Below, piece by piece: positions 894 through 38,752 of a DNA stretch of 64,000 nucleotides. The translations under genes were made by a program, and so were the position numbers. Under the pieces are notes generated by a model. The model was not told the origin of the DNA and searched no databases. It saw only the letters and a program-made list of their open reading frames with translations. How positions within the stretch are numbered: the first letter of the stretch is position 1; every line of letters begins with the position of its first letter. The stretch lies in the NCBI GenBank assembly GCA_014874485.1, contig JADBJK010000074.1, positions 75,678 through 139,677 of the forward strand, read 5' to 3'. The stretch is from Chloroflexota bacterium. Lineage in GTDB: Bacteria > Chloroflexota > Anaerolineae > DTLA01.

Positions 894-936
894 CGCGACC
901 AAAGTCACATACAACCGCGGGGAATTGCCCTATACT
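894..936 (+). promoter_or_regulatory. Crp/Fnr-family box plus -10 element (class II geometry) upstream of the hemerythrin-CODH operon
   Basis: CGCGA-ccaaag-TCACA at 894-909; TATACT at 931-936; box centre 29.5 bp upstream of the -10 hexamer (about -41.5). Confidence 0.55.
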
Positions 937-994
937 GCATGTACAAGAAACTTGACAATCGGGCCTGCGCCCGATGCACATAGGAGGCCGGACG

Positions 995-1549
995 ATGAAA
1001 CCAACCGAAGTCCTCAAAGAGGAACATCAGGGCATCAAGACGGGGCTGCGCATTCTGGGCGGCATCGCCGACCGCCTCAAAGCGGGCCAGAAGGTGCCGC
1101 CGGAGCACCTGGAGGAGATGGTGGACTTCATCCGCACCTTCGCCGACCGGTGCCATCACGGCAAGGAAGAAGACCTGCTGTTCGTGGAGATGGAGAAGGC
1201 GGGCGTTCCCAGGCAGGGTGGCCCCATCGCGGTCATGCTCCTGGAACACGACCAGGGGCGCGGGTACGTGCGGGCCATGGCCGACGCAATCCCCGGATAC
1301 AAGGCCGGCGACCCCGCCGCAGCGCAGAAGTTCGCGCAGAACGCCTACAACTACATCGGTCTGCTCACCCAGCACATTGACAAGGAGGACAATATCCTCT
1401 ACGTCATCGCCGATATGCACCTTTCGGACGAGCAGCAAGCGTGCCTACTGGATGGCTTTGACCGCGTGGAAACCGAGCGCATCGGTCCGGGCAAGCACGA
1501 GGAGTACCACCGCATGTTGGAGCGCCTGAGCAGCGTCTATCTCCAGTAG
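995..1549 (+). CDS. Hemerythrin-like (HHE cation-binding) protein
   Basis: EEH...CHHGKEEDLLF...EHDQGR...HIDKEDNILY motifs; AGGAGG RBS. Confidence 0.9.
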   Translation: MKPTEVLKEEHQGIKTGLRILGGIADRLKAGQKVPPEHLEEMVDFIRTFADRCHHGKEEDLLFVEMEKAGVPRQGGPIAVMLLEHDQGRGYVRAMADAIPGYKAGDPAAAQKFAQNAYNYIGLLTQHIDKEDNILYVIADMHLSDEQQACLLDGFDRVETERIGPGKHEEYHRMLERLSSVYLQ

Positions 1550-25868: not shown

Positions 25869-26971
25869 ATCGCTTGCCCCTCGCCGCGCACCCGCACCAG
25901 CGCGCCTGCTGGGTGCGGCTCAATCTCCACGCGCGGGCCCAGGAACTGCTCTATCGCCCAGGCGTTGGTTCGCAGGTGGTCGGTGGCACGCGGCGTGGTG
26001 AACGCCACATCCGCCCCGGCCAGTACCGCAGGCAGCAGCAACTGGTCGGCCAGATGCTCGTCCACGGCGGCCTTCGTCGCGTGAAACCGGATGAGTTCGC
26101 GGGCGGCCTCCTCGGCGACGCGCTCCGCGGGCTTGCGCAGCGCCCCGTAGGCGGTGAACCCGCCGATGCCGCGCTCGTACTCGGCCACGAGGAAGACCAC
26201 CGTGCCGAAGCCCATTGCTGGCGCTTCCGCCTCCTCCATTTCGGCGCGCAGGCCCGCCTTGCGGAGCATCTCCAGCGCCTGCGCCTTCTGCCGCTGGACG
26301 ATGTGCTCGGGCAGGTTGGACGCCGCGCTGATGCCCCAGACGCGGGTCAGGCGCCCCCGCCGCGTCCAGTCCAGCGAGCGTGCCGCCCCTTCGGTGGCAT
26401 CCAGCGGCTGGATGCTGGCCTGGACCACGCCGCCGCCCTTCGGGTACCAGCCCCAGCGTTGGATGGCGAGGTCGGCCCTGTAGCCGAGCGCGGCGACCGC
26501 CGGCAGGTACACATGCGCCAGGTAGTGAAACGGCGGACTCCAGGGCACGTGGGTGCCGCCCACCAGCGTCAGGTGCGACGGCGCACCGGCAAGCGCCAGG
26601 GGCAGGAAGAGCGTCTGGAAGACCAACGACACCGCGCCCGCGCTTCCCCCCGCCTCTGTGGCCCCCACGTCAAAGGTGCAATCGCCGCCTGCGGGCCAGC
26701 GTTGGGGCGCGAACAGCAAGTCCTGGGACCCGACGCGGTCGCCCTCCACCGCCGCGCCCGAGATGGCCGCAGCCGCGCGCACGGCCACCAGGTGCTGCGG
26801 GCGCAGACCCGGCTTGGGGCGGCCCGCGCGTATCCGCCGCATCCGAAAGGGTCGGCCCAGCGCCACGGCCAGCGAGAGCGCCGTGCGCAGAATCTGCCCG
26901 CCGCCCTCGCCGTAGGAGCCGTCTATCTCCAGAACATCGGCCTGCGCCCCGGCCATGGTCGCCCCGCTCAC
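25850..26971 (-). CDS. rtcA: RNA 3'-terminal phosphate cyclase
   Basis: [56 protein letters not shown]. Confidence 0.95.
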
Positions 26972-29445
26972 GGACTCGCGGCGACGGAATTGGACGGGAG
27001 TTCCACGCTCTCCTTGCGGTAGAAGCGGATGCCCGTATCGCCCGCGTCCACGATGATGACGTCGCCCTCTCGGAACTCGCCGCTCAACAGGCGCAGCGCC
27101 AGGGCGTTCTCCACGTGCTTCTGGAGCGCCCGGCGCAGGGGCCGCGCCCCGAAATTGGGGTCATACCCCTCCCGCGCAAGCCAATCGCGGGCGGCCTCGG
27201 TCAGTTCCACCTCTACGCCCTGCTCGCGCAGCCGCGCGCGAATCTCCTTCATCTGCAAGTCCACGATTTGCTTGACCTGGTCCAGCGTCAGCGTGTGGAA
27301 GATGATGATCTCGTCCACGCGGTTCAGGAACTCGGGTCGGAAGGTCTCCCGCAGGCCGCGCTCAATGGCCTCGTGGGCGGCGCGCTCTTCGGAATCGCGC
27401 GTGTCGGCAGCCCGGAAGCCCAGGGTGCCCCCCTTGCGCGTGTACTGCGTCCCGATGTTGGAGGTCATGATGACCACCGTGTTGCGGAAGTCCACCGTGT
27501 GGCCCTGGCCATCGGTCAGGCGACCGTCTTCCAGAATCTGGAGCAGCGCATTCCAGACTTCGGGGTGGGCCTTCTCAATCTCGTCAAAGAGCACCACCTG
27601 GTAGGGCCTGCGGCGGACGGCCTCGGTCAGTTGGCCGCCTTCTTCGTAGCCCACGTATCCCGGCGGCGCGCCGATGAGGCGGGAGACCGTGTGCCGCTCG
27701 CGGTACTCGCTCATGTCCACGCGCACCAGGGCGTCCTCGTCGTCAAACAGGAACCAGGCCAGCGCCTTGGCCAGTTCGGTCTTGCCGACGCCCGACGACC
27801 CCAGGAAGATGAACGAGCCGATGGGGCGGCGTGGGTCCTTCAGCCCGGACCGTGCCCGGCGGATGGCGTTGGACACGGCGCGGATGGCCTCGTCCTGGCC
27901 CACGATCCGCTCGTGGAGCCGCTCCTCCATGTGGAGAAGGCGCTCGGCCTCGGTCTCCAGGAGCGCTGTAACGGGAATGCCGGTCCATGTGGCGACCACC
28001 TCGGCGATATCCTGCACGTCCACCACTTCGTCAATGTTCTTCTCCCGCTGCCAGGCTTCGCGGGCGGCGTTGAACTCCTGCTCCAGGCGCAGGCGTTCGG
28101 CGCGGTGGATCGCGGCCTTCTCGTAGTCGCGCTGCTGCCAGGCGGCCTCTTCCTCCGCCGCCAGTTTGTGGATGGCGGCGCGCTTCTCCTTCAGTTCGGG
28201 CGGCATGCTGTGGATGGCCATCCGCAACTTGGAGGCGGCCTCGTCTATCAGGTCAATGGCCTTGTCGGGCAGGTGGCGCTCGGTTACGTAGCGTTTGGAC
28301 AGGCGAGCGGCGGCCACCAGCGCCTCGTCCGAGAAGCGCACCTTGTGGTGCGCCTCGTAGCGGTCGCGCACGCCGCGCAGCATCTGGATGGTCTCCTCCA
28401 CCGACGGCTCGTCCACGTACACGGGGGCGAAGCGGCGCTCCAGGGCGGCGTCCTTCTCAATGTAGCGGCGGTATTCGTCCAGGGTGGTGGCGCCCACGCA
28501 CTGGAGTTCGCCCCTGGCCAGGGCTGGCTTCAGCATGTTGGAGGCATCCATGGCGCCCATGGCCGCGCCCGCGCCGACCACGGTGTGGAGTTCGTCAATG
28601 AAGAGGATGATCTCGCCCTGGGCGCGCTGGATTTCCTCAATGGCGGTCTTCAGGCGCTCCTCAAATTCGCCGCGGAACCGCGTGCCCGCCACCATCGCGC
28701 CCAGGTCCAGGGCCAGCACGCGCTTGCCCATCAGGACCTCGGGCACGTCCTCCTGCACGATCTTCTGCGCCAGACCCTCCACGATGGCCGTCTTGCCCAC
28801 GCCCGCCTCGCCGATGAGGACCGGGTTGTTCTTGGTGCGGCGCGACAGAATCTGCATCACGCGCATGATCTCTTTGTCCCGGCCGATGACCGGGTCCAGT
28901 TTCCCCTCGCGCGCCAGTTGGGTCAGGTCGCGGGTGTATCGCTCCAGGGTTCGGTAGCGGCTCTCGGCCTGGGGCGAGGTAACCCTCTGCCCGCCCCGCA
29001 CCTGCTCAATGGCCTCCATCACCCGATCCCGTGTAACGCCCATTTCCTCCAGCAGGCGCGATGCGGGCGACCCGCGCTCGGCGATGAGGGCGAGGAACAG
29101 GTGCTCGGTGGAGATGTAGTCATCCTTGAGACGGTTCGCTTCCTCGTTGGCCGTGTCCACCACGTGCTTGAGGCGCGGCGTGATGAACATCTGGCCCGGC
29201 ATCGTGCTGCCGAAGGAGGGCGTTCTGGGCGCAGCGCGCAACGTGGCCTCCAGGCGCTGCTTCAGCGTCTCGGTGTCCACGCCCAGTTTGTCCAAAATCT
29301 GGGGAATCACGCCCCCCGGCTGTTCTATCAGCGCCAGGAGCAGGTGCTCGGTATCCACCTGCGTGTGGTTGTAGCGCTGCAAAATCTCGTAGGCGCGCAT
29401 GGCTGCATCCTGTGCGCGCTCCGTGAAACGGTCAAATCGCATCAT
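26968..29445 (-). CDS. clpC: ATP-dependent Clp protease ATP-binding subunit, ClpC-like
   Basis: Clp-N repeats, two Walker A motifs ([16 protein letters not shown]), short middle domain, LGF ClpP-docking loop. Confidence 0.88.
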
Positions 29446-29490
29446 AGAGTTTCCCCTCGCCGGCATGCACCGGCTCTGTGATTCAGGCCA

Positions 29491-30582
29491 CTAGTAGCGA
29501 AGGATAGCCCCAATCTGGCCTGCGCGTTTCAAATCCTCATTCCCCGGCACAAACTCTACCTCAACGCCCCGCTGGATGGCGCGGCGGACGATGGCATCCA
29601 CTGCGTCCTTGATGGGAACCATGGGGCCGCCGCAGTACACGCACGTCTGGGTCTTCTGGGCGCCGATGTAGCCGCAGTGCTCGCACCGGTAGGCGGTGGC
29701 CTGCAACCCCTCGTCCACGATGAGCACGTGCACGCGCTCCTCCTGCAACGCGGTCAGGGTGTCGGCCAGGCCGATGGCGCCCGGCCCGCCTTTGGTCGCC
29801 GCGGTGATCATCTGCTGAATCAGCGCAGCCTCGCGGTCGTGTTCGGCCTTCTCCAGCAAGTCTTGCGCGCGCGCCAGGGCCTCGCTCTCCGACGCGGTGA
29901 TGTCTATGGGCATGGTGCCGATGACGCTGTCGCGCAGCGCCTTGGGCAGCATGGACAGGAAGCGCGACACGGTCTCCTCTTGCCCGCCCACGATGAGCCG
30001 CTTGCATCGGTGCTTGTTGCAGAAATCCTTGACCAGCGTTGCGGCCTCTTTCAGGTTCTGGTGGGCTTTCTCATCCTGGCGGCGCTGCAACCGCTGGGCC
30101 GCCCAGCCGCCCTTCTTGTGCCGTTTCAGTTCCGTCCCGAACGTCCCGGCCGTGTCCTCCACCACGCCCAGGTGGTACAGGATGACCCGCGCGCCTTCCT
30201 GGTCCACCAGCGCGACGGCAAAGCGGCCGTACTCGTCCAGCATGTCGCTGAGCGGCTTCACGTAGGGCCGGTCGGCCACGAACACGTGGTTGCTGACCGG
30301 CACGCTGACCGGCAGGGCCCGCCAAAAATCCTGCGCCTGGCAGGAGAACATGGCCAGCCCCTTGGCCTGCCAGTCGTATTCCAACTCCACGAAACGCTCC
30401 ATGCGGTCGGCGTCAGCCTGGGCCGCGCCCAGCGCCACCGCCTGCTTCAGCATCCCCCTAAGGCTCAACTTGACTTCGTCCTTGACGTGGCGGGAAGGAT
30501 CCGTGCTCAGGTACAGGCTCAACACCGTGGCACCATCTGCGTGGAAAGCAGCCAGTTCATGAACGTCCTTTTCGTCAAACAT
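29491..30582 (-). CDS. Bacterial archaeo-eukaryotic release factor-like protein (baeRF/eRF1-Pelota fold) with Zn ribbon
   Basis: SLYL N-domain, KRHKKGGWAAQRLQRR loop, RLIVGG, CEHC...CVYCGG, C-terminal IGAILRY. Confidence 0.85.
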   Translation of the reverse strand: MFDEKDVHELAAFHADGATVLSLYLSTDPSRHVKDEVKLSLRGMLKQAVALGAAQADADRMERFVELEYDWQAKGLAMFSCQAQDFWRALPVSVPVSNHVFVADRPYVKPLSDMLDEYGRFAVALVDQEGARVILYHLGVVEDTAGTFGTELKRHKKGGWAAQRLQRRQDEKAHQNLKEAATLVKDFCNKHRCKRLIVGGQEETVSRFLSMLPKALRDSVIGTMPIDITASESEALARAQDLLEKAEHDREAALIQQMITAATKGGPGAIGLADTLTALQEERVHVLIVDEGLQATAYRCEHCGYIGAQKTQTCVYCGGPMVPIKDAVDAIVRRAIQRGVEVEFVPGNEDLKRAGQIGAILRY

Positions 30583-30619: not shown

Positions 30620-30961
30620 CTACTCGCTACTCTGCAACTTGCTTTTCAGCAAGGCGACCTCGCGCTCAAAGCGTGCTTGCAGGGCCTCCATCTCGGCCTT
30701 CATCTGCGCCACCTGATCCATCAGCGACAGAATCGCCTCCACCCCTGCAAGATTGACGCCCAACTCGTCTGTAAGACGCTGAATCTGCCGCAATCGTTCA
30801 ATGTCGCTGGGCGAGTACAGCCGTCGGTTGCCCGGCGAGCGGCAGGGCTTGATCAGCCCCAGGCTCTCGTAGTAGCGCAGGGTCTGGGGATGCACCCCCA
30901 CCATTTTCGCTGCCACGCTGATGACGTAGCAGGGTTCCTGATGCGACGGACTGTCGCCCAC
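30620..30961 (-). CDS. hspR: MerR-family heat-shock repressor HspR-like
   Basis: YVISVAAKMVGVHPQTLRYYE..GL, RRLYS..DI, LGVNLAG. Confidence 0.88.
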   Translation of the reverse strand: MGDSPSHQEPCYVISVAAKMVGVHPQTLRYYESLGLIKPCRSPGNRRLYSPSDIERLRQIQRLTDELGVNLAGVEAILSLMDQVAQMKAEMEALQARFEREVALLKSKLQSSE

Positions 30962-31002
30962 GGATGGCCTCCAGATACGACTTGACTATGGAGAGAATTG
31001 TC

Positions 31003-31102: not shown

Positions 31103-32257
<1,155 letters not shown>

Positions 32258-33613: not shown

Positions 33614-33688
33614 CTATGTTGGAGAATGGCACCCTACATCGCCCCGCAAATCCGCGCCCAAACGAACTCTTGAGTGAGGAGGGAGGCT

Positions 33689-33793
33689 ATGTACGCGACG
33701 GATGTCATCTGGTGGGCCTACACGGCGTTCCTGGTCCTGGTGATTCTGTTCATGCTGCTTTTCGCCTGGAAGGTGAGGGAGAAAGGAGGGTGA
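33689..33793 (+). CDS. 34-aa single-TM small subunit (IIa-like) of the heme-copper enzyme
   Basis: MYATDVIWWAYTAFLVLVILFMLLFAWKVREKGG; GGAGG RBS; stop 2 bp before the subunit II start; below the ORF-track cutoff. Confidence 0.8.
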   Translation: MYATDVIWWAYTAFLVLVILFMLLFAWKVREKGG

Positions 33794-33795
33794 AG

Positions 33796-34218
33796 ATGGA
33801 CAGACGTGAACGGAACTGGCTGTTGGTTCTGGTGGGCGTGTTCCTGCTCGTCAATGTCATCACGCTGTCGCCCCTGGTTCCCTGGCAGAAGTGGCTCCTC
33901 TGGTCCCGCCCCACGCCCGACCGAATCGTCCCCGTGGAGTTTGAGAACTACCAGATTCGGCTGCCGCAGGGCGGCGTGGAGGTGAAGGCCAACGAGTTCG
34001 TGCAGTTCGTCGCCACGTCCAAAGACGTAACCTACGGGTTCGGCGTGTTCCGACCCGACGGCACGATGGTATTCCAGATGCAGGTGCTGCCGGGGTACCA
34101 GAACAAGATCACGTGGCGATTTGACACCCCTGGCGTGTACGATGTGCGCTCCACCGAATACTCAGGCCCGCGGCATCCGGAGATGTACATCCCGAATGCC
34201 ATACGGGTGCTGCCGTAG
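33796..34218 (+). CDS. Heme-copper oxidoreductase subunit II-like cupredoxin lacking CuA ligands
   Basis: One TM, TSKDVTYGF, QVLPGY, FDTPGVY, STEYSGPRHPEM. Confidence 0.88.
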   Translation: MDRRERNWLLVLVGVFLLVNVITLSPLVPWQKWLLWSRPTPDRIVPVEFENYQIRLPQGGVEVKANEFVQFVATSKDVTYGFGVFRPDGTMVFQMQVLPGYQNKITWRFDTPGVYDVRSTEYSGPRHPEMYIPNAIRVLP

Positions 34219-34229
34219 GGAGGTGCGAC

Positions 34230-35882
34230 ATGGCGAAACTCAACTGGCAAACCAAGTGGACGCTGCGTTTTGCGGTTGTTGGCCTGCTGTTCCTGGCGCT
34301 GTCGGGATTTGAGGGCATCCTCATGCGCATCCAGTTGGCCGCGCCCGACGCGCTGCACGGGATGGAGCAGGCGCTGATGGCGCTGCGCCCCGTCGGGCGC
34401 GAGGTTACGTCCGCCGAACTGTACTACGCCATGCTGACGGCGCACCCCATCGTGGGCATCTACGGCTTCGCCTACATGCTGGTCTTTGGCGCGTTCTACT
34501 TCCTGGTGCCCTACCTGCTGGGCAAGGAGGTCCGCCACAAGAAACTGCTGGTGTTCAACTTCTGGGCGCAGATCGTTGGGGTGCTCACCTGCTGGGCGGC
34601 GGGCTTCTTCGGGCTGTTCAACTCGCTGTACACGCTCTACTGGCCGCTGCCCGTGTCCTACGACCGCGTGCCGCTCGTCGGCAGCATTGCCTTCACCGTG
34701 GGCGCGGCCATCATCATGGTCAACATCCTGCTGTTCTCGTACAACACCTTCAGCACCGTGTTGAGCAAGAGCAACCCGGGGTCCTACAGTTTCGGCGCGT
34801 TCCTGCGGGCGGCCTTCGGCATCTCGCGCCTGATGAAGCGCCTGGGCAGGGAGGACAAGGCCGCGCCCAACCTGGACTACAACGGCCTGCCCGTGTTCAT
34901 CGTGGCGGTGGCGCGCGGCTCCATTGACACCGTCATCAACGCCATCGTGCTCCTGACGGCGGGCGCGCTGATCCTGGTCTATGGCATCGCGGCGCTCCTC
35001 AAGTCGCCACTGAACCCCGCCGCCGTTGACCCGCTCATCTACAAGAACTGGTTCTGGTGGGGCCTGGACATGGTGGCCGACGGCAACGTGCTGATATACA
35101 CGGCGGGCGTGTGGTATCTGCTGGTGCCGCTCCTGGTGGGCCGCAAACTGTTCGGCGAGAACGTGGTCAAGACGGTCATCATGGTGGACCTGCTGGTGTC
35201 CCTTGGCGTGTGGAGCCACCACCTGCTGGGCGACCAGAGCCAGCCGCTGTGGATGCGGCTGATTTCGGGCCAGTTCATCACCTGGGGCGAGTTCTTCACC
35301 ATGGGCCTGACGCTGTTCGCCACGCTGATGACCATCTGGCTGGCGCGCCCGGTCAAGTTCTCGCCGCCGCTCAAGTTCGTGCTGGGCTCCATGTTCGGGT
35401 TCATCATGGGCGGCGCGGCGGGCCTCATCCAGGCCAACGTGGGGCTGAACGTGGTGTTCCACAACACCCAGTGGGTCGTGTCGCTCCACGCGCACACGTT
35501 CCTGCTGACCGGCCTGGCGATGCTCCTGTTCGCCGTCGTGTACGCCCTGATTCCCATGCTCACGAACCTGGAAATCAAGAGCAACCGTCTGGTGAACGCC
35601 CACTTTTGGCTGTGGATGGTCGGCTCGGTGGGAATGGCCTACGTGATGGGCATGGCGGGGGCGCGCGGGATGCTCCGCCGCACGCTGTACCCCGAAGGCA
35701 ACCCCTACCAGACCAACGAGACGCTGGCCATCGTCGGCGGCGTTCTGATCGGCCTGGGGTTCCTGGCCTTCCTGGTCAACATCATCGCGACGCTGGGCTG
35801 GCGGAACGTCCTGAGCCTGGTCGTCCCCGAGCGGTGGCTGGAGCGGCAACCGTCGGCGGCGCTGGCCGAGGCGCAACCCTAG
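34230..35882 (+). CDS. Heme-copper oxidoreductase subunit I, B-family-derived, putative nitric oxide reductase (gNOR-like)
   Basis: About 12 TMs; LTAH, WSHH, HNT.W...HAH, GMLRR; helix VI reads FWWGLDMVAD. Confidence 0.85.
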   Translation: MAKLNWQTKWTLRFAVVGLLFLALSGFEGILMRIQLAAPDALHGMEQALMALRPVGREVTSAELYYAMLTAHPIVGIYGFAYMLVFGAFYFLVPYLLGKEVRHKKLLVFNFWAQIVGVLTCWAAGFFGLFNSLYTLYWPLPVSYDRVPLVGSIAFTVGAAIIMVNILLFSYNTFSTVLSKSNPGSYSFGAFLRAAFGISRLMKRLGREDKAAPNLDYNGLPVFIVAVARGSIDTVINAIVLLTAGALILVYGIAALLKSPLNPAAVDPLIYKNWFWWGLDMVADGNVLIYTAGVWYLLVPLLVGRKLFGENVVKTVIMVDLLVSLGVWSHHLLGDQSQPLWMRLISGQFITWGEFFTMGLTLFATLMTIWLARPVKFSPPLKFVLGSMFGFIMGGAAGLIQANVGLNVVFHNTQWVVSLHAHTFLLTGLAMLLFAVVYALIPMLTNLEIKSNRLVNAHFWLWMVGSVGMAYVMGMAGARGMLRRTLYPEGNPYQTNETLAIVGGVLIGLGFLAFLVNIIATLGWRNVLSLVVPERWLERQPSAALAEAQP

Positions 35883-35908
35883 CCGTGAATCTACTTGAAT
35901 TAAGGGAC

Positions 35909-35946
35909 AACGATGCGACGCACCTTCGGAAGTGCGTCGCATCGTT
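35909..35946. repeat. Stand-alone TGCGACGCAC palindrome, possible bidirectional terminator
   Basis: AACGATGCGACGCAC-cttcggaa-GTGCGTCGCATCGTT. Confidence 0.8.
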
Positions 35947-35950
35947 CTCG

Positions 35951-36140
35951 TTACCGCATGATCACCCGCAGGTAGGCGTATGGGATCGGCCCCGAACCCG
36001 CCCAGAACCCGCCGACAAGCGTGTACACGTCGCCGGACAGTTTACCCGCGTCTGCCTGGCCCGCCGTTCCCACCAGCGTGAAGCCTCCTCCCCTCAACTC
36101 GCCCCCGCCGCCGTCCACGGTGTACCAGGGCAGCGCATAA
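35951..36140 (-). pseudogene. 5'-truncated remnant of a small Gly-rich exported protein
   Basis: YALPWYTVDGGGG...GTAGQADAG.LSG..YTLVGGFW...YLRVIMR; no plausible in-frame start or signal peptide before the divergent promoter. Confidence 0.6.
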
Positions 36141-36218
36141 GGATGGCCATACCCGTCTGGACGGGCGCGGCTGTTGGGGATAACCGTCCTGCGGCTTTGG
36201 AACCGCGCGGGGGGAATC

Positions 36219-36247
36219 TTGCGCGCAGGGCCAATGGGTGCTACAAT
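36219..36247 (+). promoter_or_regulatory. Promoter of the aminotransferase gene
   Basis: TTGCGC-17bp-TACAAT with TG extension. Confidence 0.55.
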
Positions 36248-36292
36248 CAGGCGGCTTCGCTCAGAGCAATGGTGCTGCAAGGAGGAAGAATC

Positions 36293-38161: not shown

Positions 38162-38255
38162 GCCGCCAGTGTAAGCCGGGCAGGCCGTTTCCGTCAACTC
38201 CGGCGCGGCTTGGCGTCTGGTGGCGAACCACGCGCGCACTTGCCCATCCGTCGTC

Positions 38256-38718
38256 GCGGGCGAAGCGAAGCATCTCGGTTGACGAGTAGGGGCAATTCAT
38301 GAATTGCCCCTACGGGCGCTGCGCGTCCTCGCAATGACAACTTCTGCCTGTCATTGCGGGCGAAGCGAAGCATCTCGGTTGCGAGATTCTTCGCGGCTTC
38401 GCCGCTCAGAATGACGGAGTCATCTGTCATTGCGGGCGAAGCGAAGCATCTCGGTTGGCGAGATTCTTCGGCGCTTCGCGCCTCAGTAGGGACAATTCAT
38501 GAATTGTCCCTACGGGCGCTGCGCGTCCTCGCAATGACAACTTCTGCCTGTCATTGCGAGCGAAGCGAAGCAATCCCGGGCCGCGGAGATTCTTCGCGGC
38601 TTCGCCGCTCAGAATGACAGAGTCATCTGTCATTGCGAGCGAAGCGAAGCATCTCGGTTGACGAGTAGGGGCAATTCATGAATTGCCCCTACGGGCGCTG
38701 CGCGTCCCTCACATTGAC
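38256..38718. repeat. Composite palindromic repeat cluster with three GTAG REPs
   Basis: GTAGGG(G/A)CAATTCATGAATTG(C/T)CCCTAC at about 38286, 38485, 38665 within TGTCATTGCG units. Confidence 0.92.
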
Positions 38719-38752
38719 GGTTGCCACCGGCCCGTTGCGACCGCCAACGCCT

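Follow-up and report, generated by a model that had tools for sequence, protein, structure and literature searches.

A three-subunit operon of the gNOR family in an Anaerolineae genome, probably for a quinol-fed nitric oxide reductase

The window analysed here is a stretch of 64,000 nucleotides from a Chloroflexota bacterium of the Anaerolineae (GenBank assembly GCA_014874485.1, contig JADBJK010000074.1, positions 75,678 to 139,677 of the forward strand). At positions 33689 to 35882 it carries an operon of three genes for a haem-copper enzyme. By its sequence features the locus adds one more member to the published gNOR family and is not a new kind of enzyme. We argue from its sequence that the operon encodes a three-subunit gNOR-type enzyme that is probably fed by quinol and scavenges nitric oxide (NO) by reducing it. 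We would put the probability of this reading at about 0.6. The operon has the following features.

33689..33793, forward strand: first gene of the operon, a 34-residue single-helix membrane peptide, its ATG behind a GGAGGG ribosome-binding site
33796..34218, forward strand: subunit II, 140 residues, an N-terminal helix and a cupredoxin domain without a CuA site
34024..34041, forward strand: DVTYGF, Tyr at the first CuA His position of subunit II (DVIHGF in the Thermus CuA domain)
34150..34185, forward strand: STEYSGPRHPEM, Ser at both CuA Cys positions of subunit II (CNQYCGLGHQNM in the Thermus CuA domain)
34230..35882, forward strand: subunit I, 550 residues, haem-copper oxidoreductase of the gNOR family (PF00115, 1.4e-64)
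34443..34445, forward strand: codon of H72 (LTAH) of subunit I, low-spin haem ligand (by MAFFT; invariant in a 32-sequence alignment)
35067..35069, forward strand: codon (GAC) of D280 of subunit I, at the position of the ba3 helix VI CuB ligand His233
35079..35081, forward strand: codon of D284 of subunit I, at the position of the ba3 cross-link residue Tyr237
35217..35222, forward strand: codons of H330 and H331 (WSHH), helix VII ligands of the non-haem metal, on ba3 His282/His283
35487..35495, forward strand: H420-A-H422 (HAH), ligands of the high-spin and low-spin haems, on the ba3 H-F-H motif

The three genes are intact, tightly spaced and translationally coupled, and each has a GGAGG-type ribosome-binding site ahead of it. 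The small peptide has an alternative GTG start at 33674.

Membership of the gNOR family

Murali et al. (2024, PNAS, PMC11214002, cited throughout from the part of its text available to us) describe gNOR as the first haem-copper family in which an active-site His is replaced, the replacement being Asp. By the same account the family has no active-site Tyr, its cupredoxin subunit lacks the CuA residues, and some of its conserved residues may bind quinol. It was counted in 156 GTDB genomes and 913 metagenome sequences, mostly from microbes of sulfidic habitats. It was proposed to be an NO reductase, and a 2-His-1-Glu iron site engineered into myoglobin was cited as the precedent. The window enzyme answers to this description. 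Subunit I, as aligned, has an aspartate (D280) in place of one of the three active-site His, and both haem sites are intact (PF00115; H72, H420 and H422). The initial annotation had called the enzyme gNOR-like on account of Asp for His and a cupredoxin without CuA, and this is the published definition. It had also called the family little characterised. That holds for the biochemistry, whereas publications already cover the family itself, where it occurs and which Chloroflexota have it. Its warning that such genes would be mislabelled as cytochrome c oxidases is borne out by the names that sources give to close homologues, which are 'cbb3-type cytochrome c oxidase subunit I' or 'cytochrome c oxidase subunit 1'.

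The published genome counts can probably be tied to the window's family. Dataset sd08 of PMC11214002 gives GNOR=1 for at least about 20 Anaerolineae and several dozen Bacteroidales genomes, most of them without nirK, nirS or nosZ, and Nitrososphaeria are listed too. The genera g__DUEL01 and g__CAIVAT01 are among the GNOR=1 entries. Two loci related to the window operon lie on contigs with these prefixes: L015 (77% identical) on DUEL01000039 and L071 (43% identical) on CAIVAT010000061. The genome of L015 has exactly one PF00115 gene. Since the prefixes match GNOR=1 genera and the L015 genome has this single gene, we infer from the accession prefixes that the gene counted as gNOR in sd08 belongs to the window's family. 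The name has an earlier history as well. In the available part of PMC8756737, Table A4 lists Sulfurimonas, Sulfurovum and Persephonella as having gNOR, with Sievert et al. (2008) as the source.

It must be noted what the published gNOR description does not contain, as far as the available part of PMC11214002 goes. A second invariant Asp at the Tyr position was not found there, nor were the split or fused state of the 34-residue helix, a member that keeps CuA, a link to haem o synthase, or a neighbourhood with Rrf2 and hemerythrin genes. Our additions are of this kind. The window enzyme is the only haem-copper enzyme of a genome in which we saw no nirS, nirK, nosZ, narG, napA or nrfA and which has a haem o synthase and not a haem a synthase. 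Its relatives have Rrf2, hemerythrin and CRP/FNR neighbours, and one archaeal member has a complete CuA ligand set.

The active site of subunit I

The motif FWWGLDMVAD covers residues 275-284 of subunit I. We aligned subunit I with phmmer to Thermus thermophilus ba3 chains (4n4y and 4g7r; 1ehk over the range 218-481). There is no gap between VDPL and FWW. In the printed alignment and the 1ehk range D280 pairs with ba3 His233 and D284 with Tyr237. In the same comparison H330/H331 pair with His282/His283, H420/H422 with H-F-H, and Y296 with Tyr248. We take His233 to be a CuB ligand, Tyr237 the cross-linked residue, and His282/His283 metal ligands. A MAFFT alignment with 14 other haem-copper enzymes has the same register, with D280 on the His of the GH pair. 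None of the ba3, MAFFT or A-family alignments that we made puts a His or a Tyr at the helix VI His and Tyr positions. In the window's subunit I there is no His in helix VI and no Tyr in helix VII (LLVSLGVWSHHLLGD), and the His that would carry the Tyr cross-link is itself missing from the sequence. Within the family, a 32-sequence alignment shows no variation at six His (H72, H330, H331, H411, H420 and H422). By sequence, the non-haem metal keeps two of its three His ligands, and two invariant carboxylates stand on the His/Tyr face of helix VI.

The initial annotation described this site well. The helix VI motif and its Asp codon are where it had placed them, phmmer against ba3 and MAFFT agree with its claim that the CuB His and the cross-linking Tyr both align to Asp, and the LTAH, HAH and WSHH motifs that it listed as kept are H72, H420/H422 and H330/H331.

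The marks of a ba3-type O2 reductase, namely a CuB site of three His, a cross-linked His-Tyr pair and CuA, are absent from the window enzyme. Subunit I scores far under the NCBIfam equivalog cut-offs for aa3, bo3, SoxB and cbb3. Its AlphaFold2 model is confident, with a predicted local distance difference test score (pLDDT) of 81 and a predicted TM-score (pTM) of 0.85. By Foldseek this model has a TM-score of 0.76 against A-family subunit I chains and 0.67 against ba3.

Conservation and distribution of the family

A word-indexed protein search with subunit I gave 3,122 proteins at E <= 1e-10, of which the best 120 are full length and 73-95% identical. In an exhaustive search of 50%-identity representatives the only other full-length close clusters are P0121 (54%) and P0123 (43%), and beyond them identity falls to 29%. 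The family is therefore tight and isolated. We also scanned species-representative genomes with the patterns YKN[WV]FWW and [VI][FLM]HNTQWV, which adjoin the aspartates and exclude them. This gave at least 600 matches, at least 556 of which were confirmed as relatives. All locus counts in this text are for the best 80 of these confirmed relatives.

The aspartates hold up across the family. WWGLD[ML][VI]ADG stands in an open reading frame (ORF) of more than 300 residues at 79 of the 80 loci, and the miss (L064) is a 1.4-kb fragment. D280 and D284 are each invariant in all 79 family ORFs that cover them. Among representatives and fragments with the WGL context the Asp is present in all but one fragment, P0178, which has Lys. 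Since the motif recurs at 79 of 80 related loci, the Asp motif as read from these sequences is not the result of chance or sequencing error.

Judged by record titles, the carriers are metagenome-assembled genomes (MAGs) of Anaerolineae, Thermoflexia, Dehalococcoidia, Firestonebacteria and Bacteroidales, and in the Archaea MAGs of Bathyarchaeia, Nitrososphaeria and Thermofilaceae. We made a quick maximum likelihood tree from 17 members of the family together with 19 other haem-copper enzymes, none of them a named gNOR, and use it for monophyly alone. The family is one clade in this tree, with 100 in the Shimodaira-Hasegawa-like approximate likelihood ratio test (SH-aLRT). Its sub-clades are a Chloroflexota type, a Bacteroidales type and two archaeal ones. 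We do not trust P0174 and P0239 as a sister group, as they are long branches that were joined in the quick tree. A search of the ESM Atlas returned generic COX1 clusters only.

Two side observations belong here. P0253, a 568-residue metagenome protein that is about 30% identical, has VLYDGIVN at helix VI, where the His has given way to Asp and the Tyr to Asn. This protein may represent a second, independent Asp-for-His lineage. The chromosome of a Bacteroidales MAG (G002) has three frames of 545 residues (L097, L098 and L099; PF00115, about 193 bits each), two of which match the positions of family loci L079 and L065. Three other haem-copper genes are present on the same chromosome.

Subunit II and the small peptide

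The top PDB matches of subunit II are the CuA domains of Thermus ba3, at 1.5e-5 to 6e-5. The match to the COX2/CoxB models is weak (TIGR02866 CoxB, 1.5e-7, far under the cut-off). Compared with the Thermus CuA domain, the first His has become Tyr and both Cys have become Ser, as the initial annotation had said. Three of the five side-chain CuA ligands are thus replaced; the second CuA His and the Met are retained.

The family set of subunit II has 76 sequences, the window's own and those of 75 related loci. Subunit II lies directly 5' of subunit I at 75 of the 80 loci, and at the other five subunit I is at the edge of the DNA. Tyr stands at the first CuA His position in 74 of the 76 sequences; one has His (L069) and one a gap. 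RSTEYSG is near-invariant. Ser/Ser occupies the Cys positions in 75 of 76, and L069 has Cys/Cys. The second CuA His is present in the Chloroflexota type and is Gly in most of the Bacteroidales-type subunits. Since RSTEYSG is so strongly conserved in a loop that would bind no metal, the sequences suggest a new role for the loop, which might lie at the contact with subunit I or help to bind the donor.

L069 (L069:1713-3824, in a Thermofilaceae archaeon MAG) is worth considering separately. Its subunit II has DVTHGF and RCTEYCGFRHSEM, which is a complete set of CuA ligands, and it is the sole CuA-complete member among the 75 related-locus sequences. Its subunit I keeps WWGLDLVADG, the Asp/Asp motif. 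Because L069 pairs an intact CuA set with the Asp motif, this single sequence suggests that the change of the metal site preceded the loss of CuA.

The small transmembrane subunit that the initial annotation had placed ahead of subunits II and I is a genuine gene, the ORF at 33689-33793 with its GGAGGG site. At 41 Chloroflexota-type loci it is likewise a separate ORF that ends just 5' of subunit II, with the consensus M-[YH]-x-[TS]-[DE]-x-[IV]-W-W-x-Y-T... The profile of this peptide also matches residues ~14-38 of a longer subunit II, of about 187 residues, in 19 of 75 ORFs (hmmsearch, E <= 1e-3). All 19 belong to the Bacteroidales or Firestonebacteria type. One lineage therefore has the helix as a peptide of its own, and another has it joined to subunit II. 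A PDB search with the 34-residue peptide gave one chance-level match and no sequence relative. We considered the peptide as a homologue of ba3 subunit IIa and rejected this, since the likeness is one of size and position only and there is no PDB match.

The host genome

The host genome (3.74 Mb in 122 contigs, 95.7% complete) has a single PF00115 gene, the window's subunit I. Cytochrome bd is present. We did not find nirS, nirK or nrfA in this 95.7% complete genome, a search of it for nosZ gave nothing beyond the cupredoxin of the window operon, and narG and napA gave nothing over the cut-off. Absence from a MAG that is about 96% complete is not proof. The genome (G000) has two large molybdopterin oxidoreductase frames with one in-frame TGA each (C56:75856-77901 and C73:19081-21924). 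We rejected these as narG or napA since the match is far under the cut-off, and took them as other oxidoreductases. They may be selenocysteine enzymes such as formate dehydrogenase.

The host genome encodes a haem o synthase, which at 211.1 bits just clears the cut-off of 210.3, and a haem a synthase was not found in it. Cytochrome bd is not known to use haem o. Since the haem o synthase has no other obvious client, gNOR is likely its client, and a b/o-type enzyme is predicted for this reason.

Neighbours in relatives

In 16 of 23 Bacteroidales-type loci the operon is preceded, on the same strand and at a distance of 14-225 bp, by a regulator of the Rrf2 family. Hemerythrins are the second recurrent neighbour. 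A 185-residue hemerythrin-HHE protein with weak similarity to YtfE/DnrN is present in 12 loci, at less than 300 bp in 7, and its cluster representative carries PF01814. A DUF438-hemerythrin-PAS protein is present in 11 loci. Chloroflexota-type loci have CRP/FNR regulators (12 loci) and haem o synthase (TIGR01473, 265 and 208 bits; 8 loci), the latter abutting the operon in 5. Sulphur-transport genes (PF04143) flank 8 of the 23 Bacteroidales-type loci, and a rhodanese gene is found in 5 loci. Taken together, the neighbours are a better fit to a regulon for nitrosative or oxidative stress than to one for respiration, and they do not single out NO.

What the enzyme probably does

By general coordination chemistry, a site of two His and a carboxylate favours Fe(II) over Cu. 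The non-haem metal site of the window enzyme would be of this type and would hold iron rather than copper, which matches the pattern of NO reductases (NORs), in which the non-haem iron FeB has a carboxylate. No His-Tyr cofactor could form. The four-electron reduction of O2, in the form known from this superfamily, would then be unavailable, and the two-electron reaction of 2 NO to nitrous oxide (N2O) would be open and would take place at the haem/iron centre. Electrons would come from menaquinol, not cytochrome c, and would enter through the low-spin haem. The catalytic haem would probably be haem o. The invariant residues Y296, T351, E354 and T357 could deliver protons from the cytoplasmic side. 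The role would be to scavenge or detoxify exogenous or adventitious NO. We argue for this role and not for denitrification because no nitrite, nitrate or nitrous oxide reductase was seen in the genome.

Several points weigh against this scenario. The published accounts, in the parts available to us, contain no assay of any gNOR, and the role as NO reductase is a proposal. The quinol donor is argued from the absence of CuA and from quinol-binding residues that Murali, Hemp and Gennis reportedly named in 2022 (BBA 1863:148907). Since L069 keeps the full CuA ligand set, a quinol donor would not be universal in the family. The haem o synthase call is barely over its cut-off. The Rrf2 neighbour matches SUF, IscR and RirA models better than NsrR, all of them under the cut-off, and the hemerythrin and CRP/FNR neighbours fit O2 or iron stress equally well. 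The window operon itself has no stress-type neighbour; it is flanked by a PIN/HTH pair on one side and a class-V aminotransferase on the other.

The remaining points concern the residues themselves. The placement of D280 and D284 around the metal is read from the sequence register only, and HMMER against A-family chains gives another register. It pairs WG with WG, which shifts the alignment by one residue and puts Leu279 on the His. We prefer the ba3 register because D280 and D284 are four residues apart, which is the spacing of the His and the Tyr, and because the modelling of the gNOR authors likewise reads Asp for His (PMC11214002). Finally, a 2019 preprint (10.1101/592808), in its available part, reports a change of a haem ligand from His to Glu in gNOR. 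We do not see this change, as the three haem His are invariant in the 32-sequence alignment.

One can imagine a scenario where the same enzyme family does not have NO as its physiological substrate. In lineages of strict anaerobes it would use its haem and 2-His-carboxylate iron site to remove another small oxidant, such as O2 or H2O2, or to act on a sulfur species. A search of the genome gave no nitrite reductase that would produce NO. MAGs of Anaerolineae, Bacteroidales, Dehalococcoidia and Bathyarchaeia commonly carry the family, and hemerythrin, Rrf2 and CRP/FNR neighbours are typical of O2, iron and NO stress alike. The PF04143 genes beside 8 of 23 Bacteroidales-type loci and the 5 rhodanese genes also speak for this scenario, as does the link to sulfidic habitats (PMC11214002). 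However, the known haem-copper O2 reductases depend on the His-Tyr cofactor (PMC11214002), which this enzyme lacks. Cytochrome bd already serves O2 in this genome. The literature, so far as its text was available to us, gave no precedent in the superfamily for a sulfur substrate, and a haem with a carboxylate-ligated non-haem iron is the pattern of NORs. We rate a substrate other than NO as rather unlikely.

The NO-scavenging reading must also be set against a respiratory one. Here the enzyme would be an energy-conserving NO reductase that receives NO from neighbours by cross-feeding and takes up protons through a K-channel-like path. Y296 falls on ba3 Tyr248, and the invariant T351, E354 and T357, which are three apart in helix VIII, lie near ba3 Ser309, Thr312 and Thr315. 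These four ba3 residues are presumably channel residues. However, the helix VIII alignment to ba3 is gapped and this mapping is uncertain. A legend in the available part of a 2021 preprint notes conserved gNOR residues which may form a channel, but Table A4 gives gNOR zero predicted proton channels (PMC8756737). Partial denitrifiers are common in the sd08 table (PMC11214002), but no other N-oxide respiratory gene was found in this genome, and the neighbours in relatives are of the stress type, not the respiratory type. A respiratory role is improbable on this evidence.

It does not make sense to regard the enzyme as a decayed or inactive B-family oxidase, or as an ordinary oxidase that takes its His and Tyr from elsewhere: helix VI is placed by sequence and the A-family register differs by one residue, but the best 120 of 3,122 homologues are 73-95% identical over their full length, neither the haem and metal ligands nor the two aspartates vary among bacterial and archaeal sequences, helix VI lacks a His and helix VII a Tyr, the genes are intact and translationally coupled, and an RNA-library contig of a relative (about 86% identical) runs over the II/I junction, which is weak evidence. 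We give this idea very little credence, and the reading as a dead oxidase was rejected because the residues are conserved across the family.

The NO-scavenging reading can be extended to the family, and here we are tentative. Nitrite reductases are mostly missing from Anaerolineae, Bacteroidales and Bathyarchaeia, and in these groups gNOR may have no part in denitrification. It may instead be a haem o/non-haem iron enzyme (2 His and 2 Asp) that is fed by quinol and acts as a scavenger, with control of the Rrf2, CRP/FNR and hemerythrin type. Anaerobes would gain protection from the NO of their neighbours and possibly from other small oxidants, and the metal site of the family would have switched before CuA was lost. 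This wider picture is possible but doubtful as a whole.

If they are active, gNOR enzymes, which form one of several families of predicted nitric oxide reductases, would be additional sources of N2O or sinks of NO in anoxic habitats, overlooked by surveys of cNOR and qNOR genes. With at least 556 species-level genomes here, the family is far larger than the 156 GTDB genomes of 2024. Labels of cytochrome c oxidase inflate the apparent aerobic capacity of MAGs of anaerobes. The host genome is a clean test case, since it has a sole haem-copper enzyme, no recognisable denitrification gene, and a haem o synthase without another obvious client.

Occurrence in metagenomes

Near-identical DNA is present in metagenomes from hot springs, anaerobic digesters and mixed cultures, including at least two studies (P6 and P7) without a run flagged as a possible source. 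This occurrence may make material available. A metatranscriptome run (X20) has 5% of the words. At 85% likeness it has five contigs of relatives over 34049-35535, and the parts that they leave uncovered carry no information. One contig of 1,326 nt, from a relative about 86% identical, crosses the II/I junction. It is a weak hint that II and I are transcribed together, as RNA libraries can contain DNA.

Other features of the window

A hemerythrin gene is present in the window, far from the operon.

974..1549, forward strand: hemerythrin-HHE protein, 191 residues, a possible functional partner, 32 kb from the operon

At L009, a near-identical MAG locus (about 93-95%), a hemerythrin gene lies 158 bp downstream of subunit I, and the window's hemerythrin is 97% identical to this copy. 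Synteny between the two ends just past subunit I (window 35883-36277 against L009:7657-8379). The counterpart of L009:7657-8379 is window 895-1542 (92% identical), 32 kb upstream, and the aminotransferase follows the window operon. The break could be a rearrangement or an assembly difference between the MAGs.

Upstream of the operon is a heat-shock-type cluster, all on the reverse strand (29491-30582, 30620-30961, 26968-29466 and 31103-32257). It comprises a regulator of the MerR family that is HspR-like (118.8 bits; the cut-off is 105), ClpB, an HtrA-type protease and a baeRF family 10 (bacterial eRF1-like) protein. Downstream, the intergenic sequence at 38207-38751 is an array of three copies of a unit of about 200 bp, two of them 96-97% identical. 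Each unit has a perfect 28-nt palindrome, GTAGGGGCAATTCATGAATTGCCCCTAC, and the box CATTGCG[AG]GCGAAGCGAAGCA. By its sequence the array looks like a repetitive extragenic palindromic (REP) element or a miniature inverted-repeat transposable element (MITE). The array's peptide signature, CHCERSEA, is also found in the translation of an ORF near 31000, a sign that the box may occur there once more.

Comparison with known systems

E. coli cytochrome bo3 resembles the proposed window enzyme in its CuA-less cupredoxin subunit II, its quinol donor and its catalytic haem o. The gNOR authors make this comparison over the loss of CuA (PMC11214002, available part). It differs in that it is an O2 reductase of the A family, with the three CuB His and the Tyr all in place, and its subunit II matches that of the window at E 0.03-0.04 only.

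The cNOR and qNOR enzymes share the chemistry proposed for the window enzyme, 2 NO to N2O at a haem and a non-haem iron with a carboxylate. They are also without the Tyr cofactor, and a quinol donor would match qNOR. However, these enzymes have FeB with three His and a Glu and are kin of the C family, whereas the window enzyme has two His and an Asp. C-family (cbb3) chains match the window's subunit I weakly, at 1e-11 and weaker. The partner of the catalytic subunit differs too, being a cytochrome c subunit or a fused quinol domain in cNOR and qNOR and a cupredoxin here, and the window enzyme probably uses haem o.

Thermus ba3 (1ehk, 1xme) has the gene order of the window (small peptide, II, I) and a short subunit II with one helix. 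Its subunit I shares the motifs VDPL...FWW, HH and HNT.W...H.H. The differences are in the metal sites. His233 and Tyr237 are Asp in the window enzyme, and the CuA His, Cys and Cys are Tyr, Ser and Ser. By sequence and fold together the window's subunit I is no closer to ba3 than to the A family.

The best match is the published gNOR family. It has in common with the window a B-family-like gene order, Asp for His, the absence of the Tyr and a cupredoxin without CuA. Anaerolineae, Bacteroidales and Nitrososphaeria appear both in the published table and in our genome scan. There is no defining difference between this family and the window enzyme.

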